From assembly GCA_965263035.1 (NCBI GenBank), contig OZ253580.1, positions 6,134,071 through 6,198,070 of the forward strand: a stretch of DNA of 64,000 bases, in the 5' to 3' direction. Source of the stretch: Acidobacteriota bacterium. GTDB taxonomy: Bacteria > Acidobacteriota > UBA6911 > RPQK01 > JAJDTT01. Shown here one piece after another: positions 3 to 52,500 of the stretch. Positions within the stretch are counted from its first letter, which is position 1; each line of letters starts with the position of its first letter. The notes under the pieces are model-generated. The model did not search any database. It saw only the letters and a program-made list of their open reading frames with translations, and was not told where the DNA came from. A program made the translations under genes and the position numbers.

Positions 3-644
3 AAGCAGGCGGTCCAACTCCAGAAGCGGCTTCGCTCTCGCATCCACACCGATCTGCCCTTGTCTGACCCGGGAAGAATCGCCGGCGTGGACGTGGGGTA
101 CAGCCGGTCCCTCGGCCTTTCCGTCGCGACCGCGACGGTCCTTTCGTTCCCCTCCCTGGAACTTGTGGAATCGGCGGTGGCCACTACTCCCACGCCATTT
201 CCGTACGTCCCGGGATTGCTGAGCTTTCGGGAGCTGCCCCCCATTCTGGAGGCCCTCGACCAGCTCTCGGCGCCGCCGGAGATGATCCTGGTGGACGGCC
301 ATGGACGGGCCCATCCCAGGCGATTCGGCATCGCCTGCCACCTGGGCCTGTGGCTCCGGATTCCCACCATCGGCGTGGGCAAAACCCGCCTCTGCGGAGA
401 GTACGAGGAGCCGGGTCTGACCAAGGGATCGGCCAGTCCCCTGCGAGACGGATCCGAAACTCTGGGTGTGGTCCTGCGCACCCGCACCCGGGTCCGGCCC
501 GTCTTCGTTTCGGTGGGATACGGGCTGCCCCTGGAAGCCTGCGTGAATTGGACCCTGGCCGTCACTCCCCGTTACCGAATTCCCGAACCGGTCCGCCAAG
601 CCCACAACTTGGCGGCCCGGCAGACCGGGAACCGGCCGTGTTAG
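3..644 (+). CDS. nfi: Endonuclease V (deoxyinosine 3' endonuclease), 5' end outside the window
   Basis: Motifs IAGVDVGY, FPYVPGLLSFRE, LVDGHGRAHPRRFGIACHLG, PVFVSVG, YRIPEPVRQAH. The frame is open from base 3. Confidence 0.95.
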   Translation, partial: KQAVQLQKRLRSRIHTDLPLSDPGRIAGVDVGYSRSLGLSVATATVLSFPSLELVESAVATTPTPFPYVPGLLSFRELPPILEALDQLSAPPEMILVDGHGRAHPRRFGIACHLGLWLRIPTIGVGKTRLCGEYEEPGLTKGSASPLRDGSETLGVVLRTRTRVRPVFVSVGYGLPLEACVNWTLAVTPRYRIPEPVRQAHNLAARQTGNRPC

Positions 645-816
645 GAGTCTGCGCGGTAGAAATGATCGTAGCGAGAAAGTGGGGAATCGAGGCCGGATTT
701 TCTCGTTTTGGAGGTGCATAGTTGTTCTATTCGCCGAGAAATCGGGGAAATATGGACCGATCCTACCGCTTTCGCAGTAGATCAATTTCTGCGGCGCAGG
801 CTCCTAGGTCCGTATA

Positions 817-17180: not shown

Positions 17181-17211
17181 AGAGTACGATAATTGCACTT
17201 TATCGTACTCT
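17181..17211. repeat. Site B copy 2
   Basis: Perfect 12-bp inverted repeat AGAGTACGATAA-TTGCACT-TTATCGTACTCT. Confidence 0.88.
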
Positions 17212-17420
17212 CCACCACGCTCCTGACTGCCTCGGGAGAGCGTCCCTCGGCATCGGTCTGGAAACCGCTGTCGCCTCTCTGGTGGACGTCGCCCGCCGGT
17301 ACCGGTGGCCTGAGCCACCCCTTCGGCAAGTCGTTTCCGAGTTTTGGTCCCTGGGGCGGCGGGCTGGTATTCTCCAAGGCACGCCATGTCCACTCGTTCC
17401 AGGCGGCAGCAGGAGTCCGC

Positions 17421-20400
17421 TTGATCAGTCCTCTACTCGGTTCATTCTCGGTTCCGTTTTTTGCCTGGTGGCTGTTTTTCGTCCTGTCGCCACCGCAAAC
17501 CGGCGGCCCCTCGTCAGAGCACGGGCGCCGGACGGACGACTCGATCGCACCTCAGGCGCAGGAACCGGGGGAGACGATTCTGTACTTCCCGGATTACGTG
17601 GATGGGGGCGGCTGGTCGGTGCAGCTGGTGCTCAGCAACGTCGACCCGGAGACCGCGGCCGAGGTTCGGGTGGATGTCTACGACCCGGACGGACAGCCGG
17701 TCCGGGATCTGTTCGATTCCGATTTGACGTTGGAAATCCCCTCACTGGGCAGTCGAGTCTTGAGAAGCGCCGGCTCCGGAGCCCTTCGGCGAGGGTGGAT
17801 CGAGGTCCAGACCCGTTCGGCCGCAGTGAGTGGATTGTTGACCTACCGAGACACCCAATCGGGGATCGAAGTCGGCGTCAAACCCGTTGCGTTGGGACAA
17901 CGGTTCGCTTTGTTCGTGGAGGAATCGCCGACGGTCGGCGCCGGAGTCGCCGTGTACAAGACGGACGCCGCGGCCCGCGTCGAGCTTCGAATCCGCAACG
18001 AGGAAGGCCACGACCCCATGGAGGGAGGGGTCGTCCGCTGGGGGGATTTCCGCCAAGCGGCTCGGACGCTTCCGGAATGGTTCGATGTCCCCGGGGTCGA
18101 CACGGAATTCCTGAGGGATTTTCGCGGCCTGTTGTTCCTGGAGACCGAGGACGATTCCCGGTTCGCCCCGCTGGGGTTGCGGTTCGGGAAGGGAACCTCT
18201 TCGCTTTCGGCGGTACCGGCGATCCGGACCCAGAGTCAGGAACCTCAAGAGGCGGCCCTGGTCTTTCCCGACTACGTGGATGGCGGCGGCTGGTCGGTGC
18301 AGTTGGTGCTCAGCAACGTCGACCCGGATGCTGCGGCCGAGGTTCGGGTGGATGTCTACGACCCGGACGGACAACCGGTCCGGAATCTGCTCGATTCCGA
18401 TTTGACGTTCGAGGTTCCGAGCCAGGGCAGTCGAGTCTTGAGAAGTGCCGGCTCGGGCGCCATTCGGCGAGGTTGGATTCAGGTCGAGACCGATGCGGCC
18501 GCAGTCGGTGGACTGTTAACCTACCGAGACGCCCGAACGGGGATCGAGGTCGGCGTCGAGCCCATCCGGTTGGGGAATGAATTCGCTCTGTTCGTGGAGG
18601 AATCGGAGACGATCGGGGCGGGTCTGGCCCTCTTCAACCCGGAGGCGTCATCCAGGATCGAACTGAGGCTCCGCGACGAGGAAGGCAACGATCCGTTGGA
18701 CGGAGTGTACGTCCCCTGGAGAGACTTCCACCAGGCGGCGCGCACACTCCCGGAATGGTTCGACGTCGAAGGCGTGGATACGGGATTTCTGAGGGACTTT
18801 CGCGGTCTCCTGTTCCTGCGAACGGAGGACGAATCCGGGTTCGCCCCGCTGGGGCTGCGGTTCGGGAAGAGGTCCTCGTCGCTCTCGGCGGTGCCGGCGA
18901 TTCGGATCCCGGAGGGAGGCGGGATCGACGGCGGCCAGGCCCCGCCCCCGACGGTGACGCTTTCGGCATCGCCGCCGTCGATCGATCGGGGCCAGAGCAC
19001 GACGTTGACCTGGTCGTCCACGAATGCGGAGAGCGCCGAGATCACTCCGGACATCGGCGGGGTGCCGACTTCGGGCACGCGGAAGGTGTCGCCGAACGTG
19101 ACCACGACCTACCGCATCACGGCGACGGGAGCCGACGGACAGACGGCGACGGCATCGGCGACGGTGACGGTGGCCGTTTCCGAGCGGGCGGCGCTGAGGG
19201 CGCTGTTCGATGCGCTGGGCGGATCGGGTTGGAGCCACAGTAACAACTGGCTGACGGACACTCCCCTGGGCGACTGGTACGGGGTCGAAGTCGATAGCCA
19301 GGGGCGGGTGATCGGACTGCGGATGGCGGTCTGGGTCGATACTGAAGACGGTGGAAGAGAAAAACTCGGGAACGGATTGACCGGGGTGATCCCGCCGGAA
19401 CTGGGTTCGCTCCCCCACCTGAGGGTCCTGGATCTCAGTCATAACCGACTGGAGGGGCCGATCCCGGCGCAACTCGGGAGCCTCTCCAGCCTGCAGGTGC
19501 TGGACCTCAGTGGGAACCAGCTGACGGGCCCGATCCCGCCCGAACTGGGGAGCCTTTCCAACCTGCAGCGGCTGAACCTCGGGGGGAACCGGCTGACGGG
19601 CCCGATCCCGCCCGAACTCGGTTCGCTTTCCAATCTGCAGTGGCTGTTCCTCAGTGGGAACCAGCTGACGGGCCCGATCCCGCCCGAACTCGGTTCGCTT
19701 TCCAATCTGCAGTGGCTGTTCCTCAGTGGGAACCAGCTGACCGGTCCGATCCCGCCCAGTTTTTTGCAGCTTGAGCAACTAGGATATTTCTATTTCTCCG
19801 ATAATTTGGGACTCTGCGCCCCCGGTACAACCGGTTTCGTCGATTGGCTGAAAGGGATCGAGCAACACGACGGTCCGTACTGTAACCAGTCCGACGTGGC
19901 CGTGATCGAGTCCCTCTACCAAGCCACCGGCGGAGCGAATTGGACGAACTCCGACGGCTGGCTCGGGGAGGGCGCCGTGAGTGATTGGTACGGGATCCGA
20001 GCCGACTCCCTGGGACGGGTGACGGGTCTCGATCTGAGTGACAACGGACTGGAGGGCCGGGTTCCGGGCAACTTGGGCCAACTGTCGCAGATGACCGAGT
20101 TGCGGATCGGTGGCAACGCCCTTTCCGGCCGGTTGCCGCTCATCTTGACCCGCCTCCCTCTTCACGAGTTCCATTACGCGGACACCGAGTTGTGTGCTCC
20201 GACCGAGGCGTCGTTCCAGGCTTGGCTGAACGCCATTCCGTCGCACGACGGAACCAACATGGATTGTGCGCCGCTCACGGACCGCGACATCCTCGTGTCG
20301 CTCTACGACGCAACTGGCGGGCCGGACTGGACCAACAACGAGAACTGGCTGACCGATACGTCGCTGGGAGATTGGTCCGGGGTCGAGGTCGATGGCCGAG

Positions 20401-22718
20401 GTCGAGTGATCGGGCTACGCTTCTCCCAAAACGGTCTAGCGGGCCCGATCCCGCCCGAACTCGGTTCGCTTTCCAATCTGCAGTCGCTGTCCCTCGGGGG
20501 GAACCAGCTAGCGGGCCCGATCCCGCCCGATCTCGGTTCGCTTTCCAATCTGCAGAGGCTGGACCTCAGTGAGAACCAGCTGACGGGCCCGATCCCGCCC
20601 GATCTCGGTTCGCTTTCCAATCTGGGGTCGCTGTACCTCTGGGAGAACCAGCTGACCGGTCCCATCCCGCCCGATCTCGGTTCGCTTTCCAATCTGCGGT
20701 GGCTGGACCTCGGGGGGAACCAGCTAACCGGTCCCATCCCGCCCGATCTCGGTTCGCTTTCCAATCTGGGGTCGCTGTACCTCTGGGAGAACCAGCTGAC
20801 CGGTCCCATCCCGCCCGATCTCGGTTCGCTTTCCAATCTGGGGGCGCTGTACCTCAGTGGGAACCAGCTGACCGGTCCCATCCCGCCCGATCTCGGTTCG
20901 CTTTCCAATCTGCGGACGCTGTACCTCAGTGGGAACCAGCTGACCGGTCCCATCCCGCCCGATCTCGGTTCGCTTTCCAATCTGCGGGCGCTGTCCCTCG
21001 ATGGGAACCAGCTGACCGGTCCCATCCCACCGGAACTGGGCGGAATGGAGCACCTGCGCACCCTGTCCCTGTCGAGGAACGCCGAGATGTCCGGAGCACT
21101 GCCCGCCCGCCTGACCGATCTGCTCCGTCTCGAAGCGCTTCTGGCTGGGGACACCCGTCTTTGCGTCCCCTCCGACGCACGCTTCCAGAACTGGCTGGAG
21201 CGGGTCTGGAAACGGCGGATTGCCCCTTGCTTCCGCGACGGCCTGCCGAAGGCGTACTTGACCCAGGCCGTGCAGTCACGAGAGTTTCCGGTGCCGCTTG
21301 TTGCCGGCGAGGACGCCCTGCTGCGGATGTTCGTGACGGCCCCGCGAGCGGGCGGGCATAAGATGCCCCCGGTCCGGGCCCGATTCTACGTCGATGGACG
21401 GGAAACGCACGTGTTAGACATCCCGGGAAAGTCCACTCCGGTACCGACCGGAGTGGACGAGGGAGCGCTTTCGGCTTCGGCCAACGCCGAAGTTCCAGGA
21501 GAGATCGTGCAGCCAGGCCTTGAAATGGTGATCGAGGTCGATCCGGAGGGGATACTGGACCCTGGACTGGGGGTGACGAAGCGCATTCCCGAGGAGGGCC
21601 GCCTCGCGGTGGACGTCCAAACGATGCCTCTTTTCGACCTGACGCTGATTCCGTTCCTCTGGAGCCAGGATCCCGATTCGTCGATTGTGGACTTGGTCGA
21701 GGCTATGGCCGAGGACGCCGAGGGCCACGAAATGCTCTGGCAGACCCGAACGCTGCTGCCGATCGGCGAGCTGGAGGTAACCGCCCACGAACGGGTTCTG
21801 AGCACGAGCAACAATGCGTTCGACCTGCGCGCTAACGCAGGGGCCATCCGGGCCATGGAGGGCGGAACGGGTTATTACATGGGATTGATGTCAAGGCCCG
21901 TCACGGGCGCGTCGGGAGTCGGGTTCATCGCCGGCTGGGTGAGTTTCTCGATTCCTTACGTCGCCACCATCGCACACGAACTCGGCCATAACCTGAGTCT
22001 TCACCACGCGCCGTGCGGGGGCGCCGGCGGTCCAGACCCGTCGTATCCCCAGACCGACGGTTCCATCGGTGCGTGGGGGTACGATTTGCACGAGGGCGGA
22101 CAACTGGTGCCGCCGTCACGACCCGATCTGATGAGCTATTGTGGCCCCTATTGGATTAGCGATTACCATTTCACCAACGCGCTCCGGTACCGGTTGCACA
22201 CCGCCGCCAGTGGCGGACCGTCGTCCCTGGTGGCCGCCCCGGCGAGATCCCTCCTGCTGTGGGGCGGCGTGGACGCCGGAGGGACACCGTTCCTGGAACC
22301 GGCGTTCGTGGTCGAGGCCCCGGCGTCACTGCCCCGTTCCACCGGTGAGTACGAGATCGTCGGACGAACCGCCGACGGAGACGAGTTGTTCTCGCTTCCA
22401 TTCCAGATGCCAGAGGTGGCCGACGGAGACGGGAGTTCCTCCTTCGCCTTCGTCCTTCCCGTACAGCCCGAATGGCCGGAATCCCTGGCCAGTATCACCC
22501 TCTCCGGACCCGGCGGTTCGGCCACGCTGGATGACAAGACCGACCGTCCGGTGACCATCCTGCGCAATTCCCGGACCGGTCAGATTCGCGGCATCCTGCG
22601 CGATGGGTCAGCCGCTGCCCTGGCCCGCGATGATGCGGTCTCCGCGTTGTCTCGGGAGCCGGACATGGAGGCGTTGAACAGCCGCGGAATCCCGGATTCG
22701 GAAGACTGGACGCGATAG
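17421..22718 (+). CDS. Large secreted protein: 2x constant N-terminal domain, Ig/PKD-like domain, three LRR blocks, M66-like metallopeptidase (family II)
   Basis: ORF open from 17193; start chosen by alignment to the 37348 paralog. 2x YFPDYVDGGGWSVQLVLSN; LTGPIPPELGSLSNL repeats; AYLTQAVQ; HELGHNLSLHHAPCG; DLMSYC. Confidence 0.88.
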   Translation: MISPLLGSFSVPFFAWWLFFVLSPPQTGGPSSEHGRRTDDSIAPQAQEPGETILYFPDYVDGGGWSVQLVLSNVDPETAAEVRVDVYDPDGQPVRDLFDSDLTLEIPSLGSRVLRSAGSGALRRGWIEVQTRSAAVSGLLTYRDTQSGIEVGVKPVALGQRFALFVEESPTVGAGVAVYKTDAAARVELRIRNEEGHDPMEGGVVRWGDFRQAARTLPEWFDVPGVDTEFLRDFRGLLFLETEDDSRFAPLGLRFGKGTSSLSAVPAIRTQSQEPQEAALVFPDYVDGGGWSVQLVLSNVDPDAAAEVRVDVYDPDGQPVRNLLDSDLTFEVPSQGSRVLRSAGSGAIRRGWIQVETDAAAVGGLLTYRDARTGIEVGVEPIRLGNEFALFVEESETIGAGLALFNPEASSRIELRLRDEEGNDPLDGVYVPWRDFHQAARTLPEWFDVEGVDTGFLRDFRGLLFLRTEDESGFAPLGLRFGKRSSSLSAVPAIRIPEGGGIDGGQAPPPTVTLSASPPSIDRGQSTTLTWSSTNAESAEITPDIGGVPTSGTRKVSPNVTTTYRITATGADGQTATASATVTVAVSERAALRALFDALGGSGWSHSNNWLTDTPLGDWYGVEVDSQGRVIGLRMAVWVDTEDGGREKLGNGLTGVIPPELGSLPHLRVLDLSHNRLEGPIPAQLGSLSSLQVLDLSGNQLTGPIPPELGSLSNLQRLNLGGNRLTGPIPPELGSLSNLQWLFLSGNQLTGPIPPELGSLSNLQWLFLSGNQLTGPIPPSFLQLEQLGYFYFSDNLGLCAPGTTGFVDWLKGIEQHDGPYCNQSDVAVIESLYQATGGANWTNSDGWLGEGAVSDWYGIRADSLGRVTGLDLSDNGLEGRVPGNLGQLSQMTELRIGGNALSGRLPLILTRLPLHEFHYADTELCAPTEASFQAWLNAIPSHDGTNMDCAPLTDRDILVSLYDATGGPDWTNNENWLTDTSLGDWSGVEVDGRGRVIGLRFSQNGLAGPIPPELGSLSNLQSLSLGGNQLAGPIPPDLGSLSNLQRLDLSENQLTGPIPPDLGSLSNLGSLYLWENQLTGPIPPDLGSLSNLRWLDLGGNQLTGPIPPDLGSLSNLGSLYLWENQLTGPIPPDLGSLSNLGALYLSGNQLTGPIPPDLGSLSNLRTLYLSGNQLTGPIPPDLGSLSNLRALSLDGNQLTGPIPPELGGMEHLRTLSLSRNAEMSGALPARLTDLLRLEALLAGDTRLCVPSDARFQNWLERVWKRRIAPCFRDGLPKAYLTQAVQSREFPVPLVAGEDALLRMFVTAPRAGGHKMPPVRARFYVDGRETHVLDIPGKSTPVPTGVDEGALSASANAEVPGEIVQPGLEMVIEVDPEGILDPGLGVTKRIPEEGRLAVDVQTMPLFDLTLIPFLWSQDPDSSIVDLVEAMAEDAEGHEMLWQTRTLLPIGELEVTAHERVLSTSNNAFDLRANAGAIRAMEGGTGYYMGLMSRPVTGASGVGFIAGWVSFSIPYVATIAHELGHNLSLHHAPCGGAGGPDPSYPQTDGSIGAWGYDLHEGGQLVPPSRPDLMSYCGPYWISDYHFTNALRYRLHTAASGGPSSLVAAPARSLLLWGGVDAGGTPFLEPAFVVEAPASLPRSTGEYEIVGRTADGDELFSLPFQMPEVADGDGSSSFAFVLPVQPEWPESLASITLSGPGGSATLDDKTDRPVTILRNSRTGQIRGILRDGSAAALARDDAVSALSREPDMEALNSRGIPDSEDWTR
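20436..21030 (+). repeat. Eight near-identical 72-bp LRR-coding tandem repeats
   Basis: GGTCCCATCCCGCCCGATCTCGGTTCGCTTTCCAATCTG-(variable)-AACCAGCTGACC repeated with period 72. Confidence 0.92.
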
Positions 22719-23617: not shown

Positions 23618-26600
23618 ATGTCAGTCCACACCCCGAAGACCTCGCATCTTTGCCGCCGCCGATCCCCGACTTTTCTCCCGGCCATTGCCCTGACCGTGGG
23701 TCTACTGGTCACAACGAAGCACGCCACGGCGCAGATCGTCCCCGTCTGCGACCGGACCCCGGACGTGCGCGCCGAGATCGTGAGGCTTGTGCCCGGAGTC
23801 AGCGATTGTGCCGACGTGACCGAGGCGCATCTGGCTGCGATTGAGGGAGAGTTTTTCCACGGCGGCTGGTATGACGCTTTGCCCACTTGGGCTGGCGGAC
23901 CCCACCTCGCGCGGGGGGCCCCTCCACAGGTAGAAAAGTTGAGAGCCGGAGATTTTTCTGGTCTCTCCTCGCTGAAAATTCTCTATTTGGACCGAACTCC
24001 ATTAGCCAGTTTGCCCCAGGGAGTCTTCGCTGGCCTTTCCTCGTTGGAAGAGCTCCACCTTGATCGCACTCAGTTGAGCACGTTGCCGGAGGGGGTCTTC
24101 GTCGGCCTCTCCTCACTGAAACGGCTCAATCTGTTCCAAAGCCAGTTAACTATCCTGCCGGAGGGGGTCTTCGCCGGCCTCTCCTCATTGGAACGCCTTA
24201 CCCTGAGTCACAATCAATTGGACACTCTGCCAAAGGGGATTTTCTCCGACCTGGCCTCGTTGAAGGAACTCGATCTGAATAACAATGATCTGATCAGTCT
24301 CCCAGTCAACGTCTTTTCGAGTCTCTCCTCCCTGGAACGGCTCAATCTGAATCACAATTTGCTGGACACTCTGTCACAGGGGGTCTTTGCTGGACTCTCT
24401 GCGCTCGAATCACTCAACCTGTCGGCCAATCAACTGACCCAGCTACCCGCTGGGGTCTTTGCCGTCCTCTTCTCGCTGGAAGGTCTCTCGCTGAGTCACA
24501 ATCAACTGACCCGTCTACCGGTCGGGGTCTTTGCTGGACTCTCTGCGCTCAAATCACTCTCCCTTTCGACCAATCAACTAACCCAGTTACCCGCTGGGGT
24601 CTTCGCCGGACTCTTCTCGCTGGAAGGTCTCTCGCTGAGTCGCAATCAATTGACCCATTTACCGGTTAGGGTCTTTGCTGGACTCTCTGCGCTCGAATCA
24701 CTCGACCTGTCGGACAATCAACTGACCCAGCTACCCGCTGGGGTCTTTGCCGTCCTCTTCTCGCTGGAATATCTCTCGTTGAGTCGCAATCAATTGACCC
24801 ATTTACCGGTTGGGGTCTTCTCAGGTCTTTTTGCGCTTAAAAAGCTCCTTCTGGATCACAATCGCCTGACCCATTTTCCGGAGGGCATCTTCTCCGGCCT
24901 CTCCAGTCTAAGAGAGGTGGAGGCAGAGAGAAACGCCGCGACCCCCTTGGGCATTCGGGTTTCACTGGAGCGGGTGGGAAGAGGCCGGTTCAAAGCCAGG
25001 GCTGACACTGGAGCCCCCCGCACTATCTTCGTGACGGTTTCTGTCGTCAATGGTGTCATCAATGGTGGCTCAAACAGCATCGTTATTCCCACTGGAAGCA
25101 TGGAAAGCTCCGTCGTCACGGTCTCCCGCCACCCAAGAACATCCGCCGCCGTCTCCGTGGATATCGACAGCTTTCGCCGGAACCACTATCTTTATTCCTA
25201 TCCCTATCTTCCGGGCCTCGAACCCGTCAGGTCCCCCGATTTGCCGCTGGTCGTTTTGGAGCCTGGTGTTGATCCGGTTGTTGATCTGACCTTTGCACAT
25301 TTTGGGAACGGAACATCGATCCGATCCGAACTCGTGCTGGTGAACCTGGGCTCGCTCCCGCTTCTTCCCGCCATCTTCTTTTACGACAAGGCGGGACACC
25401 TCATTGACTCAACTTCGGTGGTGGATATCCGGAACAATCTGTATCTCCGAGCCGACGGAGGCTTGGGCGTGTGGACAGCCATCCCCCCCCTGGGAGAGCT
25501 TACGATCTCCACCCATGGGAGAGGAGATTTGATCACGGGATCGGCAAGGGTTGTGGCAGCCGGTCCCATGGGCGGGGTCTTGCGCTTTGACGGCTCGGAT
25601 CTCGGAGTCGCCGGAGTCGGGTCCAGCCCGGCCCTCCAAGACATCGTCTTCCCCGTGCGCCGCCAACTCTCAGGAGTCAATACCGGAGCAGCATTCCATA
25701 ACCTGGAGCCCCATCCCACGATTGTGAACTGCCAACTGATGCAAGACGGAGAGATGCTTGAAGAAACGGCGGTTCTGCTGGCCGCCAACGGTCAAACAGC
25801 TCGGTTCATTGATGAGATGTTCTCTGCAACCGAGACATCGAGCTTTGTAGGGTCAGTGCGCTGTGCTGCTCCTGGAGATGAGTTGTTCACCGGCTTGGCC
25901 CTGGAGATGGACTTCCAGAACCGAGTGTTCACCACCTTGCCGATGGTCCCTGTTCCGGCGGGGCGGACACAAGACTACACGCAACTGCACTTCCCTCATT
26001 TCGCCAACGGTTCCTCCATCACTTCCGACCTGGTGTTCGTGAACGTGGCCGCAGGACCGATTCACCCGGCCATCTATTTCTACGATCGTGCAGGCCGTCT
26101 CATTGCCCCGGAATTAGTGGTGGACATCGGGGAAGACCTTCAGGTCCGCGCGGACGGAGCCCTGACCATGCAGGCGGAAGTGGCCCCGCTGGGAGAACTC
26201 ACGATCTCCACGCACGGGCGGGGAGATCTGGTGACCGGGTCGGTGAAAGTCATTGCCGATGGTCCCATCGGTGGGTTCCTGCGATTCGACAACCCCGAGA
26301 TCGGAGTCACTGGGGTCGGCGCCAGTGAGGATGTCCACGCCGCCATCTTTCCAGTTCGACACCAAGCGAGGGGAATCCGTACCGGAACGGCAATCCGCAA
26401 TCTGCAGGACAATTCGGTGCCAGTCACATGCCAACTGACACAGTCTGGCAGGGTGCTGGAAGAGAAGAAATTTCGTCTGCCGAGCAACGGACAGACCACC
26501 CGGTTCGTTGACGAGTGGTTCCCTGAGGCCGTTACATCCGACTTTGAGGGAGCGGTGCGTTGTACCGTACCCGACCGCGGTAGGTTCACCGGATTGGCTC

Positions 26601-26662
26601 TGGAGATGGATGCCGACAACCGCATCTTCACAACGTTGCCGGTGGTGCCGTTTCGGCGTTGA
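23618..26662 (+). CDS. Secreted LRR protein (~14 LRRs) with two constant C-terminal domains (family I)
   Basis: PVCDRT cap, long L..LP.GVF.GL..L array, 2x constant domain. Confidence 0.9.
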   Translation: MSVHTPKTSHLCRRRSPTFLPAIALTVGLLVTTKHATAQIVPVCDRTPDVRAEIVRLVPGVSDCADVTEAHLAAIEGEFFHGGWYDALPTWAGGPHLARGAPPQVEKLRAGDFSGLSSLKILYLDRTPLASLPQGVFAGLSSLEELHLDRTQLSTLPEGVFVGLSSLKRLNLFQSQLTILPEGVFAGLSSLERLTLSHNQLDTLPKGIFSDLASLKELDLNNNDLISLPVNVFSSLSSLERLNLNHNLLDTLSQGVFAGLSALESLNLSANQLTQLPAGVFAVLFSLEGLSLSHNQLTRLPVGVFAGLSALKSLSLSTNQLTQLPAGVFAGLFSLEGLSLSRNQLTHLPVRVFAGLSALESLDLSDNQLTQLPAGVFAVLFSLEYLSLSRNQLTHLPVGVFSGLFALKKLLLDHNRLTHFPEGIFSGLSSLREVEAERNAATPLGIRVSLERVGRGRFKARADTGAPRTIFVTVSVVNGVINGGSNSIVIPTGSMESSVVTVSRHPRTSAAVSVDIDSFRRNHYLYSYPYLPGLEPVRSPDLPLVVLEPGVDPVVDLTFAHFGNGTSIRSELVLVNLGSLPLLPAIFFYDKAGHLIDSTSVVDIRNNLYLRADGGLGVWTAIPPLGELTISTHGRGDLITGSARVVAAGPMGGVLRFDGSDLGVAGVGSSPALQDIVFPVRRQLSGVNTGAAFHNLEPHPTIVNCQLMQDGEMLEETAVLLAANGQTARFIDEMFSATETSSFVGSVRCAAPGDELFTGLALEMDFQNRVFTTLPMVPVPAGRTQDYTQLHFPHFANGSSITSDLVFVNVAAGPIHPAIYFYDRAGRLIAPELVVDIGEDLQVRADGALTMQAEVAPLGELTISTHGRGDLVTGSVKVIADGPIGGFLRFDNPEIGVTGVGASEDVHAAIFPVRHQARGIRTGTAIRNLQDNSVPVTCQLTQSGRVLEEKKFRLPSNGQTTRFVDEWFPEAVTSDFEGAVRCTVPDRGRFTGLALEMDADNRIFTTLPVVPFRR

Positions 26663-37347: not shown

Positions 37348-40300
37348 TTGATCAATCCTCTACTCGGCTCATTCTCGAGTTCTTTTTTTGCCTGGTGGCT
37401 GTTTTTCGTTCTGTCGCCGCCGCAAGCCGGCGGCCCCCCGTCAGAGCAAGGTCACCCGACGGACGACTCAATTTCCCGTCAGGCGCAGGAACCGGGGGAG
37501 ACGATTCTGTACTTCCCGGATTACGTGGATGGGGGCGGATGGTCGGTGCAGTTGGTCCTCAGCAACGTCGACCCGGACGCCGCGGCCGAGGTCCTGGTGG
37601 AAGTCTACGACCCGGACGGGCAACCGATCCTGGATCTGTTCAATTCTGATTTGACGTTGGAGATTCCAGCGCTCGGCAGTCGCGTCTTGAGAAGCACCGG
37701 ATCAGGGGCCATTCGGCGGGGTTGGATCCAGGCCGAGACCGATGCGGATACGATCAGTGGACTATTGGCCTACCGGAACGCCCAATCGGGGATCGAAGTC
37801 GGCGTCAAACCCGTCGAGTTGGGCCCGCAGTTCGCCTTGTTCGTTGAGGAATCGCCGACGGTCGGCGCCGGAGTCGCCGTTTACAAGCCGGACGCCTCGT
37901 CTCGCCTCGAGCTTCGAATCCGCGACGAGGATGGGAGCGATCCCCTGGAGGGTGGGTTCGTCCCCTGGGGGGACTTCCACCAATCGGCGCTCACACTCCC
38001 GGAATGGTTCGCAGTGGAAGGAGTCGATACGGGATTCCTGACGGACTTTCGCGGGCTGTTGTTCCTGGAGACCGAGGACGAGTCTGAGTTCGCCCCGCTC
38101 GGTCTTCGGTTCGGGAAGCGGACCTCCTCGCTCTCGGCGGTGCCGGCGATCCGGACCCAAAGCGAGGAACCTCAAGAGACGCTTCTGGTCTTTCCCGACT
38201 ACGTGGACGGAGGTGGGTGGTCGGTGCAGCTGGCGCTGACCAACGTCGATCCGGACGCCGCGGTCGAGGTTCGGGTTGAAGTCTATGACCCGGACGGACA
38301 GCCCGTCCTGGATCTGTTCGATTCCGATTTGACGTTCGAGATCCCGTCCCAGGGCAGTCGAGTCTTGAAGAGTGCCGGCTCCGGAGCCATTCGGCGGGGT
38401 TGGATCCAGGTCGGGACCGATGCGCCCACGATCAGTGGACTATTGACCTACCGGCACTCCCAATCGGGGATCGAAGTCGGCGTCGAGCCCGCCCGGTTGG
38501 GGAAGCAATTCGCTCTGTTCGTGGAGGAATCGGGAACCGTCGGGGCGGGACTGGCCCTCTTCAAACCAGATGCAGAATCCAGGATCGATCTGAGAATCCG
38601 CGACGAGGAGGGAAACGACCCGTTGAACGGGGTGTTCCTCCCCTGGAGAGACTTCCACCAAGCGGCTCGCACGCTCCCGGAATGGTTCGATGTGCACGGA
38701 GTGGATGCGGGATTTCTGGCAGACTTTCGAGGCCTCCTGTTCCTGCGCACCGAGGACGAGTCTCCGTTCGCCCCGCTCGGGCTGCGGTTCGGGAAGGAGA
38801 CCTCCTCGCTCTCGGCAGTGCCGGCGATCGGGATCCCGGACGGAGGCGGGATCGACGACGGCCGCGCTCCCCCTCCCACGGTGACGCTGTCAGCATCGCC
38901 GAAGTCGATCGATCGGGGCCAGAGCACGACGTTGACCTGGTCGTCCACGAATGCGGAAAACGCCGAGATCACCCCGGACATCGGCAGGGTGCCGACATCC
39001 GGGTCTCGGACGGTGTCGCCGAGCGTCACCACGACCTACCGCATCACGGTGACGGGAGCGGACGGACAGACAGCCCCGGCGGCGGTCACGGTGACGGTGG
39101 CCGTTTCCGAGCGGGCGGCGCTGGTCGCGCTGTACGAAGCGCTGGGCGGATCGATGTGGACCCACAGCGAGAACTGGCTGACGGACGCCCCGCTGGGGGA
39201 GTGGTACGGGGTCGAGGTCGATATCCAGGGCCGGGTGATCGGACTGCAATTATTCACAGTGATTGAGACTGAAGAGGGGCACCGAATAAAAATAGGGATC
39301 GGATTGACCGGCGTGCTCCCGCCGGAACTGGGTTCGCTTTTCCACCTGAGGGTCCTGGATCTCAGTGAGAACCAAGTGGAGGGGCCGATCCCGCCGGAAC
39401 TGGGCGCGCTCGGCCAACTGGAGTTCCTGTCTCTCGGGGGGAACAATCTGACAGGGGAGATTCCAGCGGAGTTGGGCGCGCTTGCCCAACTGAAGACCCT
39501 GTATCTCAGGTTGAATCAGCTGACGGGGGCGATCCCACCGGAGCTGGGCGCGCTCGCCGAACTGAGGACCCTGAATCTTGGTGAGAACCAGCTGACGGGA
39601 GAGATCCCGGTTGAGCTGGGCGCGCTCGCCCAACTGGAGCTCCTGTCTCTCGCCGGGAACCAGCTGGCGGGAGAGATCCCGCCAAGTTTCCTGAATCTGG
39701 ACCAACTCAACAACTTTAACTTTCACGATCTTAGAGCCGCAGGTCTTTGCGTCCCCGGTACGTCCGATTTCGTCACATGGCTGCAAGGGATGGAACGATA
39801 CAATGGATCGTACTGTAACGAGTCTGACGGGGCCGTGCTCGACTACCTGTACCGAAGTACCGGCGGAGAGGATTGGACAAACTCTGACGGCTGGGTTGAG
39901 GATGGCGCATTGGGTGAACGGTACGGGGTTCAGACCGACTCGCTGGGACGCGTAACAGGACTCGACCTGAGCGGCAACGGACTTGCGGGGCGGTTCCCGG
40001 GTAGCTTGCTTCGCCTGGGCCAGTTGACTGAATTGCGGGTCGACGGAAACGCCCTCTCTGGCCGGTTACCGTGGTCTTTGACCCGTCTGTCCCTGCAAGA
40101 ATTCCACTACGCGAACTCGGATCTGTGTGTCCCGAACGAGGCATCGTTCCGCTCTTGGTTGGACACCATTCCCTCTCACGAAGGCACAGGAATGACGTGC
40201 GGACCGCCTTCGAGCCGAGATTTCCTGATGGCGCTGTACGATATGACCGACGGACCGAACTGGGCTCAGGACGACCAGTGGGGAGCCCCTGCTCCACTGA

Positions 40301-42246
40301 AGGATTGGCACGGGGTCCGGGTAGACGAAAGCGGTCAAGTGACCGCGTTGATTCTCGGATGGAACCGACTGGAGGGTGAGATCCCGGCGGCACTCCTCTC
40401 GCTCTCCAAGCTGAGGCACCTGAATCTCAGTGGAAACAACCTGACAGGGGAGATCCAGGTGGAACTAAGCCGCCTCTCCAACCTGGAAGTGCTGTATCTC
40501 GATGGAAACGAACTGACGGGTTCTGTGCCCCCGGAACTCGGTCAGATGCGCACTCTAAAAACGTTGGGCCTGACGAACAACACTCGGTTGTCGGGGGACC
40601 TGCCAGCCAGCTTGACTTCTCTTAGCCGGCTCGAAGCGTTTCTGGCGGGAGGCACCGATCTCTGCGCTCCCGCCGACGCCAGATTCCGGAACTGGTTGGA
40701 CGGTGTCTGGAAGCGGCAGATCGTCCCCTGCTCCCGTGATGGTCTGCCGAAGGCGTATCTGACCCAAGCCGTCCAGTCGCAGGAGTTCCCGGTTCCGCTG
40801 GTCGCTGGGGAGAAAGCCCTGCTCCGGGTGTTCGTAACGTCCGAACGCGACACTGACGTCACTCTCCCACCGGTGCAAGCGACATTCTATCGGGATGGAG
40901 CGCCGCCGCACGTGGTGAACATCCCAGGAAAATCAGCTTCCATCCCGAACGAAGTGGAGGAGGGAGACCTGACCGACTCCGTCAACGCCGAGATCCCTGA
41001 CTGGGTAATTCAGCCGGGGCTCGAGATGGTCGTCGACATCGACCCGCAGGGGACACTGGATTCCAGCCTGGGTGTGACGAAGAGGATCCCGGAGAGTGGT
41101 CGTTTGGCAGTCGAAGTTCAGATGATGCCCGACTTTCATTTGACGGTGATCCCCCTTTTGTGGCGTCAGAACCCCGATTCATCGACCGTGGACATGGCCA
41201 AGGCCATGGAGCAGGATCCTGAAAGCCACGAATTGCTCCAGGACACGCGGACTCTTCTGCCCATCAGCAAGCTTGAAGTTACGGCCCACGCTCCCGTATT
41301 GACCTCAACCAACAATACCGCTGAGTTGGAACTCGAATTGAGAGTAATTCGTGCCATGGAGGGCTCCAGTCGCTATTACCTGGGCATGATAACAGGAGCA
41401 TTTGATGGTATAGCCGGAAGGGCCTCCCTTCCCGGCTGGACGGCTGTCACGACACCCAATTCGGAAGTGATCGCGCACGAACTCGGACACAACCTGAATC
41501 TCCGGCACGCGCTGTGCGGCGGTACTCCAAATGCGGATCCCTCGTTTCCCGACACCTACGGGTCCATCGGCACTTGGGGATACGACTTCCGCGAGGGCGG
41601 CCGACTTGTGCCGCCGCAATGGCGAGATCTGATGGTCTATTGCGACGTCAAATGGATCACCAATTATCATTTCACCAAATGGATCGGCGATTATCATTTC
41701 ACCAACGCGCTCCGTTACCGCTTGCAGACGGCAACCCGAAGTGAACTGTCCTCCCTGGTCGCCGCGCCGGCGAATGCTCTTATGCTCTGGGGCGGCGTGG
41801 ACTCTGCGGGGGTTCCTTTCCTGGAACCAGCGTTCGTCGTAGATGCTCCCGCGTCGCTGCCGCGGTCCACTGGTGATTATAAGATCACCGGACGAACCTC
41901 CGCCGGTGGCGAGTTGTTCTCACTGAGCTTCGACATGCCGGAATTGGCTGACGAGGATCGAAGATCCTCTTTCGCCTTCGTCCTTCCTGCAAAACCCGAG
42001 TGGGCCGAGCAGTTGGCCAGCATCGCGCTCTCCGGCCCCCACAGCTGGGTCACCCTGGATAAGAACACGGATCGTCCGGTCACCCTCCTGCGCGATCCAA
42101 AGTCCGGGCAGATTCGCGGCATCCTCCGCGACGCGGCCCCCGATGCCCTGACCCGGGACAATGCGGCGTCCGCGCTGTCGTTGGACCCGGGCCTGGAGAT
42201 GTTGACCAGCCAGGGAATTCCGGATCCGGACGACTGGGGCCTGTAG
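37348..42246 (+). CDS. Family II protein: 2x constant domain, Ig-like, LRR blocks, M66-like metallopeptidase
   Basis: Paralog of 17421..22718; HELGHNLNLRH. Confidence 0.9.
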   Translation: MINPLLGSFSSSFFAWWLFFVLSPPQAGGPPSEQGHPTDDSISRQAQEPGETILYFPDYVDGGGWSVQLVLSNVDPDAAAEVLVEVYDPDGQPILDLFNSDLTLEIPALGSRVLRSTGSGAIRRGWIQAETDADTISGLLAYRNAQSGIEVGVKPVELGPQFALFVEESPTVGAGVAVYKPDASSRLELRIRDEDGSDPLEGGFVPWGDFHQSALTLPEWFAVEGVDTGFLTDFRGLLFLETEDESEFAPLGLRFGKRTSSLSAVPAIRTQSEEPQETLLVFPDYVDGGGWSVQLALTNVDPDAAVEVRVEVYDPDGQPVLDLFDSDLTFEIPSQGSRVLKSAGSGAIRRGWIQVGTDAPTISGLLTYRHSQSGIEVGVEPARLGKQFALFVEESGTVGAGLALFKPDAESRIDLRIRDEEGNDPLNGVFLPWRDFHQAARTLPEWFDVHGVDAGFLADFRGLLFLRTEDESPFAPLGLRFGKETSSLSAVPAIGIPDGGGIDDGRAPPPTVTLSASPKSIDRGQSTTLTWSSTNAENAEITPDIGRVPTSGSRTVSPSVTTTYRITVTGADGQTAPAAVTVTVAVSERAALVALYEALGGSMWTHSENWLTDAPLGEWYGVEVDIQGRVIGLQLFTVIETEEGHRIKIGIGLTGVLPPELGSLFHLRVLDLSENQVEGPIPPELGALGQLEFLSLGGNNLTGEIPAELGALAQLKTLYLRLNQLTGAIPPELGALAELRTLNLGENQLTGEIPVELGALAQLELLSLAGNQLAGEIPPSFLNLDQLNNFNFHDLRAAGLCVPGTSDFVTWLQGMERYNGSYCNESDGAVLDYLYRSTGGEDWTNSDGWVEDGALGERYGVQTDSLGRVTGLDLSGNGLAGRFPGSLLRLGQLTELRVDGNALSGRLPWSLTRLSLQEFHYANSDLCVPNEASFRSWLDTIPSHEGTGMTCGPPSSRDFLMALYDMTDGPNWAQDDQWGAPAPLKDWHGVRVDESGQVTALILGWNRLEGEIPAALLSLSKLRHLNLSGNNLTGEIQVELSRLSNLEVLYLDGNELTGSVPPELGQMRTLKTLGLTNNTRLSGDLPASLTSLSRLEAFLAGGTDLCAPADARFRNWLDGVWKRQIVPCSRDGLPKAYLTQAVQSQEFPVPLVAGEKALLRVFVTSERDTDVTLPPVQATFYRDGAPPHVVNIPGKSASIPNEVEEGDLTDSVNAEIPDWVIQPGLEMVVDIDPQGTLDSSLGVTKRIPESGRLAVEVQMMPDFHLTVIPLLWRQNPDSSTVDMAKAMEQDPESHELLQDTRTLLPISKLEVTAHAPVLTSTNNTAELELELRVIRAMEGSSRYYLGMITGAFDGIAGRASLPGWTAVTTPNSEVIAHELGHNLNLRHALCGGTPNADPSFPDTYGSIGTWGYDFREGGRLVPPQWRDLMVYCDVKWITNYHFTKWIGDYHFTNALRYRLQTATRSELSSLVAAPANALMLWGGVDSAGVPFLEPAFVVDAPASLPRSTGDYKITGRTSAGGELFSLSFDMPELADEDRRSSFAFVLPAKPEWAEQLASIALSGPHSWVTLDKNTDRPVTLLRDPKSGQIRGILRDAAPDALTRDNAASALSLDPGLEMLTSQGIPDPDDWGL

Positions 42247-49131: not shown

Positions 49132-49372
49132 ATACTAAGACTGATCCGCATAGCTACTGCCGTGCTCGTGGCGGGTGGCCTTGCCGTCGTGGTGCTCTCG
49201 GCACAGGACGATCTCGACACGCTCCGCTAAGCCGCCGAGCAGGGTGACGACGTCGGGCAGTTCAGCCTCGGGTTCATGTACCACGAGGGGAAGGGCGTCC
49301 CGAAGGACGATGTCGAAGCGGTACGCTGGTTCCGACTCGCCGCCAAGCAAGGCTCCGCCAAGACGCAATTCT
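49132..49372 (+). pseudogene. Sel1-like repeat protein fragment
   Basis: ...SAQDDLDTLR*AAEQGDDVGQFSLGFMYHEGKGVPKDDVEAVRWFRLAAKQG with an internal stop. Confidence 0.8.
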
Positions 49373-49513
49373 GCGAGGAGGCAGTCCCATGAAGGATCGA
49401 GGCCACCCCCGTTCGCGCGCGGTTGGTTCGGTGCGCCCCGTGATGGGGGACGACCCTGGTCGCCCGCCACCCGCGGCTTTGTCGAGGCGTTGCCGAAGAA
49501 GACCGAAGGCGCT

Positions 49514-52500
49514 GTGATCTCGGTAATTCGGACAGTCCTTGCCTTCCTTCTGATCATTGGCGTCGGAGATGTCGGCCTCGCTCTCGACCGCGTTCGTGTT
49601 GAAACGAGTGTCGACAAGGCTGTCGCCGCGTTGGGCGTGTCTGGAGCGGGCGTCATCGTCGCAATTCTGGACCGCGGCATCGACTGGGAGAGCAACGATT
49701 TCCGCAACGAGGATGGCAGCACGCGGATCGCCTACATCTTCGACCTCTTCGACGATTCCGCCGCCGCCGCCCCGGGCAACTCCTACGGACGCGGCACCAT
49801 TTACACCAGGGAGCAGATAGATCAGGCGCTCTTCTCCGGCACCAGGCTGCCGACCCGGGATGCCGTCGGCCACGGGACCACAACCACCGGCATTGCCGCC
49901 GGGAACGGGCGCAACAGCGCCGACGGGAAGTACCGAGGCATTGCCCCCAACGCCACGATCATCTCCGTGAAGATCGCCACCGGTGCCCCGGCGCATGGGA
50001 ATGAGCCAGCCGAGCCCCCCTGGTACGTGGGCACCGCGGGTGTAAACGTCGCAATGGATTTTGTGGTGGACAAGGCGCGAGAACTGTCGATGCCGGTGGT
50101 GATGCTCCTCAATGTCGGATCGATCGGCGGACCGACCGACGGCACGAGCGCATTCTGTCGAAGGATCGATGAGACCGTCGGCCCCGATCACCCCGGCATT
50201 GTGTTCGTTAACGGAACCGGGGACGATGGGACTCCGGCGAAGCCGCCAAGGCGAGCGGCAGGAGACGTGCCCAACGGTGGGACTCTTGACCTGCGACTCG
50301 CGCTCGATACGGGCGAGGGCGTCCTTGAGGTGTGGTACGAGCAGAGCCAGGAGTTTGCCGTGTCGATTCATACCCCGATGGGCATGCTCGGTCCGTTCCC
50401 AGCCTCGCAGTTCACGGCAAAGGGCACTGGTGTCAATGTGTACCACTATCGTGGAGGAACGGACCACTGGGGTTCGACGAACGGCAACCGGCTGCAGCTT
50501 ATCCATTTCGATGGGGCCGCTGGACCAGGCGATTACCTTCTGAGATTGGATCACACAGCCAGCTCCGCCGGTTCCAGCATCCACTTCGACGCCTCGCTCA
50601 ACGCGGCCAATTTTTCAGGCCGATTCCTGAATTTCGTGACGCCGGGCAGCATATCGGACGGGGCGACGGCGTTTCGCAATGTAGCGCCCAACAGCTACGT
50701 CATTCGCACCAAGTGGAAAGACATTGATGGTGTCGACCGTGGGCTGATCGGTGAAGGCAACGTTGGCGAGTTCTGGACCGGCAGCAGCGTTGGACCTACG
50801 GTCGACGGGCGGGTCGGCGTAGACGTCTCGGCCCCGGGAGATCGTATTGTGACGACATACGCACCTCGGTCGGCCTGGGGCGTCAGCAGGTGGCTCCTGA
50901 TCGAGGGCGGGGGCGGGTTGTACGGAATGGCGGGGGCGGTGAGTGCCGCGGCGCCGATCGTGACCGGCATCATTGCCCTGATGCTTGAGGTCGACCCAAC
51001 GCTCGACGCTCTCTCGGTCAAGAAGATCTTGCAAGAGACAGCCCGAGCCGACGAGTTCACGGGGCCGACCCCGAACCCATTGTGGGGGTATGGCAAGGTG
51101 GACGCGTTCGAGGCGCTCATGGCGGTGCGGCTGCAGGCCCAGGACGATACAGCTCCCGCCGGAACCGAATCGTTTTCATTTCTGTACTTCCCGGATTACG
51201 TGGATGGGGGCGGATGGTCGGTGCAGCTGGTGCTCAGCAACGTCGACCCGGAGGCCGCGGCCGAGGTTCAGGTGGACGTCTACGACCCGGACGGACAGCC
51301 GGTCCTGGATCTGTTCGATTCCGATTTGACCTTGGAGATTCCGTCCCTGGGGAGCCGAGTCTTGAAAAGTGCCGGCTCAGGGACCATTCGGAGGGGTTGG
51401 ATCCAGGTCGAGACCGGTACGGCCGCGGTGAGTGGATTGTTGACCTACCGAGACGCCCAATCGGGGATCGAAGTCGGCGTCAAACCCGTTGAGTTGGGAC
51501 AACAGTTCGCTCTGTTCGTGGAGGAATCGCCGAGTGTCGGCGCCGGAGTCGCCGTGTACATGACGGACGCCGCGGCCCGCGTCGAGCTTCGAATCCGCAA
51601 CGAGGAAGGCCACGACCCCTTGGAGGGAGGGGTCGTCCGCTGGGGGGATTCCCGCCAAGCGGCTCGGACGCTTCCGGAATGGTTCGCCGGGGAAGGAGTC
51701 GATACGGAATTCCTGAGGGATTTTCGCGGCCTGTTGTTCCTGGAGACCGAGGACGATTCCCCGTTCGCCCCGCTGGGGTTGCGGTTCGGGAAGGGAACCT
51801 CTTCCCTCTCGGCGGTGCCGGCGATCCGGACCCAGAGTCAGGAACCTCAAGAGGCGGCCCTGGTCTTTCCCGACTATGTGGATGGAGGGGGATGGTCGGT
51901 GCAGCTGGTGCTCAGCAACGTCGACCCGGAGGCCGCGGCCGAGGTTCAGGTGGACGTCTACGACCCGGACGGGCAACTGGTCCGGGATCTGTTCGATTCC
52001 GATTTGAGGTTGGAGATTCCGGCGCTGGGGAGCCGAGTCTTGAGAAGCGCCGGCTCCGGATCCATTCGGCGGGGTTGGATCCAGGTCCAGACCGGTGCGG
52101 CCACAGTCGGTGGACTGTTGACCTACCGAGACGTCCAATCGGGGATCGAGGTCGGCGTCGAGCCCGTTCAGTTGGGGCATGAATTCGCTCTTTTCGTCGA
52201 GGAATCGGGGACGATCGGAGCAGGTCTGGCCCTCTTCAAGCCGGACGTGTCGTCCAGGATCGAGCTGAGACTCCGCGACGAGGAAGGCAACGACCCGTTG
52301 GAGGGGGTGTTTCTGCCCTGGCGAGACTTCCACCAAGCGGCGCGCACACTTCCAGAATGGTTCGATGTCTCCGGAGTGGATACGGGATTTCTGGCGGACT
52401 TTCGAGGCCTCCTGTTCCTGCGAACCGAGGACGATTCCCGGTTCGCCCCGCTCGGGCTCCGGTTTGGGAAGGGAACCTCTTCGCTCTCGGCGGTGCCGGC

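Follow-up and report, generated by a model that had tools for sequence, protein, structure and literature searches.

The LRR-metzincin gene and its repeat array

The window analysed here, a stretch of 64,000 nucleotides from an Acidobacteriota bacterium (assembly GCA_965263035.1, contig OZ253580.1, positions 6,134,071 to 6,198,070 of the forward strand), carries a gene for a protein that joins three blocks of plant-type leucine-rich repeats (LRRs) to a C-terminal domain resembling the metzincin proteases StcE and family M66. One of these blocks, block 3, consists of eight units that are nearly identical in nucleotide sequence outside five codons of each unit, and is the main subject of this study. 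The window's genome (hereafter G000) is a single 6.2-Mb contig that is 97% complete, and a sister-species genome (G002) contains a counterpart of the gene. The features on which the argument rests are, in window coordinates:

17193..22718, + strand: the LRR-metzincin gene, taken as the longest open reading frame (ORF), 1841 aa, with three plant-type LRR blocks and a C-terminal StcE/M66-like metzincin domain
20436..21011, + strand: LRR block 3, the main finding, eight nucleotide-homogenised 72-bp (24-aa) plant-type LRR units, in frame
20481..20501, + strand: hypervariable (HV) cassette 1 of 8, unit codons 16-22 (xxLxLxx), repeated each 72 bp to 20985-21005
20592..20696, + strand: 105-bp sequence repeated exactly at 20736-20840 (144 bp downstream), containing the GS-Y-WE cassette and both flanking frameworks
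21012..21083, + strand: terminal, diverged ninth LRR unit, LTGPIPPELGGMEHLRTLSLSRNA, which closes block 3 and is followed by a Cys-containing C-cap
19377..19736, + strand: LRR block 1, five 72-bp units

Tandem Repeats Finder detected a 72-bp period in 8.2 copies with 91% matches at window positions 20440-21028. The units of block 3 begin at 20436 and then at every 72 bp, in the frame of the ORF 17193-22718, and their consensus is L[T/A]GPIPP[D/E]LGSLSNL-xx-L-x-L-xx-NQ. A preliminary description of this DNA had listed eight cassettes at the xxLxLxx positions, and translation reproduced them exactly as QS-S-GG, QR-D-SE, GS-Y-WE, RW-D-GG, GS-Y-WE, GA-Y-SG, RT-Y-SG and RA-S-DG. The end of the array, which had been set at 21030, needs correction, because the ninth unit spans 21012-21083 and that coordinate cuts through it; this terminal unit and that of the G002 gene do not differ by a single nucleotide.

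Variation in block 3 is confined largely to five codons per unit

The HV codons were defined as unit codons 16, 17, 19, 21 and 22, and the remaining 19 codons as framework. Sixteen of the 72 nucleotide columns of block 3 are variable, and these comprise 10 of the 15 columns in HV codons versus 6 of the 57 elsewhere (Fisher p=2.8e-5); the mean pairwise difference per site is 0.338 in HV codons and 0.049 in other codons. Of the six framework columns that vary, four are third positions with synonymous change, and the other two account for the A/T alternative at codon 2 and the E/D alternative at codon 8. The confinement of LRR variation to the HV codons is confirmed by these counts and is statistically strong. 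In codons 16, 17 and 19 variation is restricted to positions 1 and 2, codon 22 varies at position 2 only and codon 21 varies at all three positions, so that the earlier claim of change mostly at the first two codon positions holds in block 3, with codon 21 varying at position 3 as well. The mean identity between units is 89.0% at the nucleotide level and 81.8% at the amino-acid level (range 75-100%), over 192 residues. The residues favoured at HV positions are G, S, Q, R, W, Y and D. The leucines that lie between them are fixed down to the codon, with CTG for Leu18 and CTC for Leu20 in all 25 units of G000 and G002 that carry this framework.

A structural model of residues 1031-1841 has block-mean values of the predicted local distance difference test (pLDDT) of 94-98 across most block-3 units and about 91 at the last, and DSSP places strands at codons 17-19 of the unit, spaced 24 residues apart. 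The top fold matches of the LRR model are the plant LRR receptor ectodomains MIK2, ERL1, FLS2, PEPR1 and BRI1, at 27-40% identity. From the strand register in this model and textbook LRR geometry, the HV residues are predicted to lie on the concave face of the solenoid. The structural reading concerns features within domains (predicted TM-score, pTM, 0.57).

Related genes differ mainly in their cassettes and in unit number

An exact 33-nt stretch of the framework (0 mismatches) occurs in 10 units of G000 and 14 of G002, and in none of the other seven genomes of the genus. Among genome_contigs the framework pattern matched three overlapping loci, all in one record (G002), and among metagenome_contigs it gave 0 matches. 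Five relatives, comprising database proteins and the G002 gene, share the framework, and together with the window's gene they supply 63 units with 41 distinct five-residue cassettes; all 63 units within the block spans fit the framework, the spans being defined by the first and last framework-type unit. Over these 63 units from six genes, entropy is 0 at 15 framework positions, 0.12-0.90 bits at four, and 1.0-2.65 bits at the five HV positions. An even spread of variation in a larger sample, which the preliminary description had regarded as speaking against its interpretation, is not seen here; the variation is concentrated at the HV positions.

Comparison with individual relatives leads to the same picture. 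Relative to the window protein, P0103 differs at 7/55 HV positions, 0/209 framework positions and 23/1359 positions in the rest of the protein (Fisher p=3.9e-5), P0017 at 28/50, 7/190 and 79/1500, respectively (Fisher p=7e-22), and P0055 at 18/37, 5/155 and 268/1509. The number of units differs as well, block 3 containing 6, 7, 7, 8 or 8 units and block 1 from 1 to 7 framework-type units in the six related genes. P0019 has an entirely different block 3, with 58/209 framework differences, which reads as the swap of a module. Over window positions 20283-21100, P0018 and P0019 combine a C-terminus 89% identical to that of the window protein and an entirely different LRR block 3, of the LSGSIPPELGNL... 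type. Judging from these sequences, whole LRR blocks appear to be swapped between members of the family.

The 42 LRR blocks of 23 family genes form a continuum from homogenised to fully diverged, and arrays that were independently homogenised with other frameworks are present in L029 and L040. Paralog arrays that have fully diverged approach saturation at the x positions of both faces, with a ratio of 1.1-1.5 between concave and convex. The block-3 array lies at the opposite extreme, young and homogenised, of a process seen repeatedly in this family. The diversity was found between genes of different assemblies and between paralogs.

Unit duplication, exchange and mosaic history

The 105-bp exact repeat at 20592-20696 carries a cassette together with its flanks and marks a duplication or conversion of recent date. 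Such repeats are longer still in the G002 gene (195, 183 and 126 bp), block 1 contains a 78-bp exact repeat at a distance of 72, and a two-unit motif is present three times in P0055. The last two units of block 1 (19593-19664 and 19665-19736, both QW-F-SG) are 100% nucleotide-identical and have the block-3 framework, which indicates exchange between blocks 800 bp apart; in G002, one cassette both ends block 1 and starts block 3. When the block-3 cassettes of G002 and G000 were compared, none was found in common.

On a larger scale, the target gene is a mosaic relative to its G002 counterpart, with 90-99% nucleotide identity over residues 800-1390, approximately 65% in the N-terminal part and 55-60% in the protease core. 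The protease core at 21375-22080 (residues ~1394-1628) has 47-67% amino-acid identity to G002, with flanks at 88-98%, and P0017 differs from the window locally, directly before the HExxH motif. The segment near the protease active site may, on this sequence comparison, be a second variable or mosaic region.

Evidence for selection on the five codons

Within block 3, the proportion of non-synonymous differences per site (pN) in HV codons is 0.425, while in the framework the synonymous proportion (pS) is 0.126 and pN is 0.017. The syntenic flanking genes of G000 and G002 have 88-91% nucleotide identity, and the non-repeat parts of the gene beside the arrays have pS of 0.103 and 0.109 and pN of 0.023 and 0.027. 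Between the same two genomes, pN in the HV codons is 0.242 with nearest-cassette pairing, a conservative procedure. Each residue type at an HV position is encoded by a single codon throughout the 25 DNA units, except for Arg at codon 17 (CGG once, AGG once), and the absence of any synonymous change among at least 19 steps has a probability of about 0.006 under neutrality. The comparison of pN with pS supports positive diversifying selection on what is predicted to be the concave face.

The metzincin domain and the N-terminus

Three further features of the gene bear on what the array is attached to and where the protein may act:

17421..17495, + strand: hydrophobic N-terminus, ISPLLGSFSVPFFAWWLFFVLSPP, with mean Kyte-Doolittle hydropathy of 1.34 over 24 residues
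21975..22007, + strand: zinc-binding motif HELGHNLSLHH (HExxHxxxxxH) of the metzincin domain, read from the sequence
22125..22142, + strand: DLMSYC, putative Met-turn (LMSY)

A Pfam scan of the 1841-aa ORF found LRR families in three blocks, Peptidase_M66, a weak PKD-like domain and nothing else; the N-terminal domain pair of the protein had no Pfam match. The Peptidase_M66 (PF10462) match is marginal, with E=1.3e-4 and 21.5 bits against a cut-off of 20.6 at residues 1575-1634, covering 60/306 profile positions. The residues H565, E566, H569, H575, D615, M617 and C620 are invariant among 21 family sequences, and DLMSYC is what we take to be the Met-turn, by analogy with metzincins in general. 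A search of PDB sequences with the C-terminal domain returned adamalysin matches, none of them significant (best E 0.096), and a fold search was therefore needed. The model of the C-terminal 512 residues (mean pLDDT 76.5) has Escherichia coli StcE (3ujz) as its best fold match, with E=1.7e-10, a probability of 1.00 and TM-scores of 0.33/0.29, followed by the catalytic domains of adamalysin/ADAM proteins and by O-glycopeptidases. A relative of the C-terminal domain is named 'M66 family metalloprotease [Acidobacteriota bacterium]' by its source.

These results support the assignment of the C-terminal domain as a StcE/M66-like zinc metalloprotease with an intact motif and a putative proteolytic (mucinase) activity, and the earlier proposal that the repeats are fused to a protease is upheld by the Pfam match, the invariant HExxHxxxxxH and LMSY motifs and the StcE fold match. 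The likeness to StcE and family M66 thus extends to profile, motif and top fold match; the differences are that the profile is covered in part (60/306), 0.9 bits over the cut-off, and that the TM-scores are 0.29-0.33. StcE is not known to have an LRR domain.

The true start of the protein is likely the TTG at 17421, which is preceded by AGGAG and coincides with the residue at which the related database protein P0017 begins. The hydrophobic stretch that follows would be a signal peptide or membrane anchor. Because this start is followed directly by such a stretch, we read the LRR-metzincin as a secreted or surface protein, and probably a secreted one.

Proposed mechanism and alternative explanations

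Building on what is directly observed, namely where the variation lies, the non-synonymous excess, related genes with different cassettes and unit numbers, exact repeats of considerable length, and the fold and motif of the protease, we propose, with a probability of roughly 0.72, that the array is the product of concerted evolution by intragenic recombination combined with positive diversifying selection on the concave face of the ligand-recognition array of an LRR-metzincin. According to this proposal, the 24-residue units would be kept near-identical at the DNA level while homologous recombination or slippage between the 72-bp repeats gives rise to duplications, deletions and conversions of units. 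These events would involve units of a single block, units of blocks 1 and 3, or units of two related genes. At the five solvent-exposed codons of the xxLxLxx strand and loop, positive diversifying selection would preserve point mutations, recombination would then move the resulting HV variants about as cassettes, and the specificity of the concave face would turn over much faster than the remaining protein. The concave face would bind a target and thereby steer or tether the protease, and the selective agent would be a variable partner, for example a (glyco)protein on the surface of a host or competitor. The preliminary description had already suggested diversifying selection together with gene conversion at the level of the repeat, and this part of it, with duplication of units as an alternative to conversion, is sustained by HV pN in excess of pS, by relatives whose differences lie chiefly in the HV residues and the number of units, and by the exact repeats of 105-195 bp.

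Several considerations weigh against this proposal. Concave-face binding, protease activity and secretion are all predicted properties. The framework DNA comes from two genes, those of G000 and G002, and the other relatives were compared as proteins, so that selection was assessed from pN and pS; the correspondence of units between genes is ambiguous, and nearest-cassette pairing lowers both pN and pS. The relatives P0103 and P0017 may be alleles from strains near to this one, or copies at a greater distance. At position 22, 50/63 units have Gly, so that it is only weakly variable. A position-targeted mutator would likewise be expected to yield change at codon positions 1 and 2 and none of the synonymous kind over the 3′ 60 nt of each unit. 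Finally, the array region is 90-99% identical between the two species against a genomic background of 88-91%, and this identity above background implies recent exchange in its history.

A more far-reaching possibility, which we entertain with considerable doubt, is that the locus constitutes a natural re-programmable binder-protease system, in which recombination, perhaps with a position-biased mutational process, would vary specificity within a population in the manner of phase variation and so retarget a StcE-like protease, with the paralogs serving as a repertoire. If this were true, the protease would be continually redirected at the changing surface glycoproteins of hosts or competitors.

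Somewhat less probable is a static code, in which purifying selection holds the residues of each unit to one fixed extended ligand and the framework alone is homogenised. The repeat-variable residues of transcription activator-like effectors (TALEs), which read a fixed DNA site, offer an analogy for such a code. It is favoured by P0103, an independent assembly in which six of the eight block-3 cassettes are identical and in the same order, and by unitigs from runs of two further studies that reproduce several cassettes exactly. A fixed ligand is difficult to reconcile, however, with P0017, which is 94.7% identical to the window protein outside the arrays and yet differs from it at more than half of the HV positions (28/50) and has 7 units instead of 8, or with the lack of shared block-3 cassettes between G002 and G000 and a between-species HV pN that exceeds the pS of the flanks.

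Relaxed constraint, under which the five exposed positions drift freely and recent expansion explains the identical framework, has slightly less in its favour again. It is favoured by the variation of x positions in any LRR and by the diverged paralog arrays, which are near saturation on both faces. On the other hand, the x positions of the convex side (codons 4, 7, 13 and 14) are equally exposed and are invariant in 63/63 units, which disfavours simple relaxation, and HV pN (0.24-0.43) is above the level of synonymous divergence in this DNA (0.10-0.13), an excess that drift is unable to produce.

The preliminary description had also raised the prospect of targeted mutagenesis, in which a diversity-generating retroelement (DGR) or another site-directed mutator rewrites the five codons of each unit. 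Changes at codon positions 1 and 2 with position 3 fixed do recall the AAY-codon design of DGR targets, and synonymous change in the HV codons is essentially nil while non-synonymous change is abundant. Nevertheless, this explanation is very unlikely. Seven of the eight RVT_1 matches in G000 fall in five intact genes and one split gene for group II intron reverse transcriptases/maturases (TIGR04416, with the GIIM domain in the intact ones), and a blastn-short search with two units found no template repeat, all matches in the genome beyond 18 nt lying within LRR coding arrays. The adenine columns 13, 23, 40, 41, 67 and 68 of the framework, which adenine mutagenesis should hit, are invariant in 25/25 units, and the exact repeats of 105-195 bp reproduce a cassette together with the sequence on either side of it, which implies copying and not re-mutation. 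Known DGR variable regions, furthermore, are single and 3′-terminal and belong to C-type-lectin or Ig folds, which sets them apart from eight LRR units in tandem. This part of the preliminary description is therefore not supported, given that no DGR-type reverse transcriptase was present among the classified RVT_1 matches, no template was found and the framework adenines do not vary. The eighth RVT_1 match, which is weak (30.7 bits), lies in a 1253-aa frame (L008, G000:C1:1809765-1813274) at 1.81 Mb, 4.3 Mb from the array; NCBIfam does not class this frame as a group II intron maturase.

A collapsed or chimeric repeat created during assembly deserves hardly any credence: short-read unitigs do break inside the array, and unit order is not checkable by short reads for that reason, but the genome is one contig, unitigs from the X2 and X6 runs match 20598-20674, 20645-20696, 20814-20874 and 20886-20946 with 0 differences, P0103 has the same 8-unit block in an independent assembly, and the reading frame is intact throughout. 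This read check used four runs on 20100-21400, in which the older runs consisted of short unitigs and the one raw-read run was Hi-C. Apparent variants in the Hi-C reads (a cluster at 20841-20845 and a loose end at 20888) were traced to block-1 reads placed on the wrong unit and were rejected, as was an A>G change at 20572, which fits units 6 and 7.

Comparison with known systems

A regime of the kind proposed here is known from a cell-surface LRR locus of Flavobacterium psychrophilum and from a Dictyostelium LRR family, according to PMC10392669 (Altae-Tran et al. 2020), which also mentions TALEs and variable lymphocyte receptors (VLRs). The F. psychrophilum locus, as described there, resembles the present one in being a secreted bacterial LRR family with a conserved scaffold, hypervariability on one face, a unit number that varies between strains and extensive recombination. 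In the same account it has repeats of ~22 residues in tandem arrays of short genes anchored through the type IX secretion system (T9SS), with broken fragments between them and no enzyme domain, whereas the present case comprises 24-residue plant-type LRRs in three blocks of an ~1800-aa protein that ends in a metzincin, in an acidobacterium. Fragments of the unit outside LRR genes were not found in the window's genome by blastn-short with two units.

In fungal NOD-like receptors (NLRs), WD, ANK and TPR repeats are highly internally conserved, as reported by Paoletti 2007 (PMC1805685) and Dyrka 2014 (PMC4986451). The features in common are near-identical repeats, concerted evolution within and between members, polymorphism of repeat number, and positive selection acting at a small number of interaction-surface residues. 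In contrast, PMC1805685 and PMC4986451 report no LRRs in fungal NLRs, which are intracellular NOD receptors, while the protein described here is apparently a secreted protease; nor does the fungal mutator, repeat-induced point mutation (RIP), have a counterpart here. The amino-acid identity between units, 81.8% over 192 residues, lies below the criterion of >=85% over >=100 residues used in PMC4986451, and the shortfall is due to the five HV positions of 24 alone, the 19 framework positions being nearly invariant. A preprint (10.1101/2020.01.06.895854) carries the idea to bacterial NLR repeats. No NOD (NACHT/NB-ARC) domain was detected in the Pfam scan of the target ORF.

TALE repeats are helical, are 33-35 residues long and recognise one DNA base each. 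They share with the present array a nucleotide-identical framework, variation at defined ligand-contacting residues and recombinational reshuffling, and differ from it in that the array forms an LRR solenoid in which each unit varies at five residues, on a predicted ligand-binding face. The VLR genes of lampreys and hagfish are assembled somatically, by insertion of flanking cassettes into an incomplete germline gene. Both systems place diversity on the concave beta-sheet of an LRR scaffold, the strand being predicted here at codons 17-19, but the diversity of the present case lies between assemblies and paralogs, in a gene that is complete and for which silent cassettes were not found. An incomplete germline gene or silent LRR cassettes were looked for and not found, the ORF being complete and framework matches by blastn-short occurring only inside LRR genes, and VLR-type somatic assembly is not supported on these grounds. 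The labels 'VLR-like' and 'antibody-like' of the preliminary description are therefore apt as an analogy for where the variation lies, on the concave face, and do not extend to somatic assembly. Plant LRR receptor ectodomains and resistance (R) proteins belong to the same 24-residue plant-specific LRR class, and diversifying selection on the xxLxLxx residues is a textbook feature of plant R genes; the plant arrays, however, are not nucleotide-homogenised and are joined to kinases or NB-ARC domains instead of a protease.

The present case differs from the known ones in its plant-type 24-residue unit, three-block architecture, Acidobacteriota host and fusion to a StcE-like protease, and a literature search that left out most subscription journals and supplements found no description of hypervariable LRR arrays with M66-like proteases or in Acidobacteriota. 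A regime known from fungal immune receptors and from one surface protein of a fish pathogen would also act on the targeting domain of a probable secreted protease. The protease family is large and uncharacterised; if the LRR face sets the choice of substrate or target, the family would amount to a natural library of retargetable proteases, and the array would bear witness to a molecular arms race still under way in a lineage of uncultivated Acidobacteriota. A scaffold of 19 fixed and 5 variable positions also resembles consensus-designed repeat binders and may interest protein engineers.

Genomic setting and the protease family

A regular expression for the unit identified 71 plant-type LRR units in G000, at about ten places. 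The target gene lies within an LRR island (window 12801-61961), where LRR matches were found in 8 of the 16 ORFs of at least 350 aa that were sent to Pfam, in addition to the target gene. Three family members with the protease C-terminus are located within 40 kb: besides the target gene, the ORF at 49175-56368, which combines an N-terminal S8 subtilase, a PKD-like domain and LRR blocks with a metzincin C-terminus like that of the target, and the ORF at 37348-42246, the third member in the window. The neighbouring 1014-aa ORF at 23618-26662 (+ strand) has a different LRR class (LxxLPxGVFxGL), with near-identical units that alternate with a 48-residue period, and ends, as judged by eye, in two domains of ~240 aa that resemble the N-terminal domain pair of the target.

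Beyond the window, the protease C-terminus was matched in 10 of 41 genomes searched, G000 included: each of the 8 other genomes of the genus contains 3-14 matches, and the tenth genome a single one that is weak and partial. One of the sister genomes has at least 8 such matches within 45 kb (G001:C1:3753887-3798100), and some open frames of this cluster (L039, L040) have two HExxH domains. A protein database search with the C-terminal domain gave 3179 proteins at E<=0.001 among 7999 scored candidates. The corresponding search with the LRR region retrieved no closely related genes, and long, unrelated multi-repeat LRR proteins ranked first. Among its matches, however, were many metagenome proteins that join LRR blocks of this class to reprolysin-like, subtilase and trypsin-like domains. 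At window positions 642-810 lies an element of ~165 bp with 28 matching places in G002 at 71-95% identity, which resembles a dispersed miniature inverted-repeat transposable element (MITE) or a repeat of the repetitive extragenic palindrome (REP) type.

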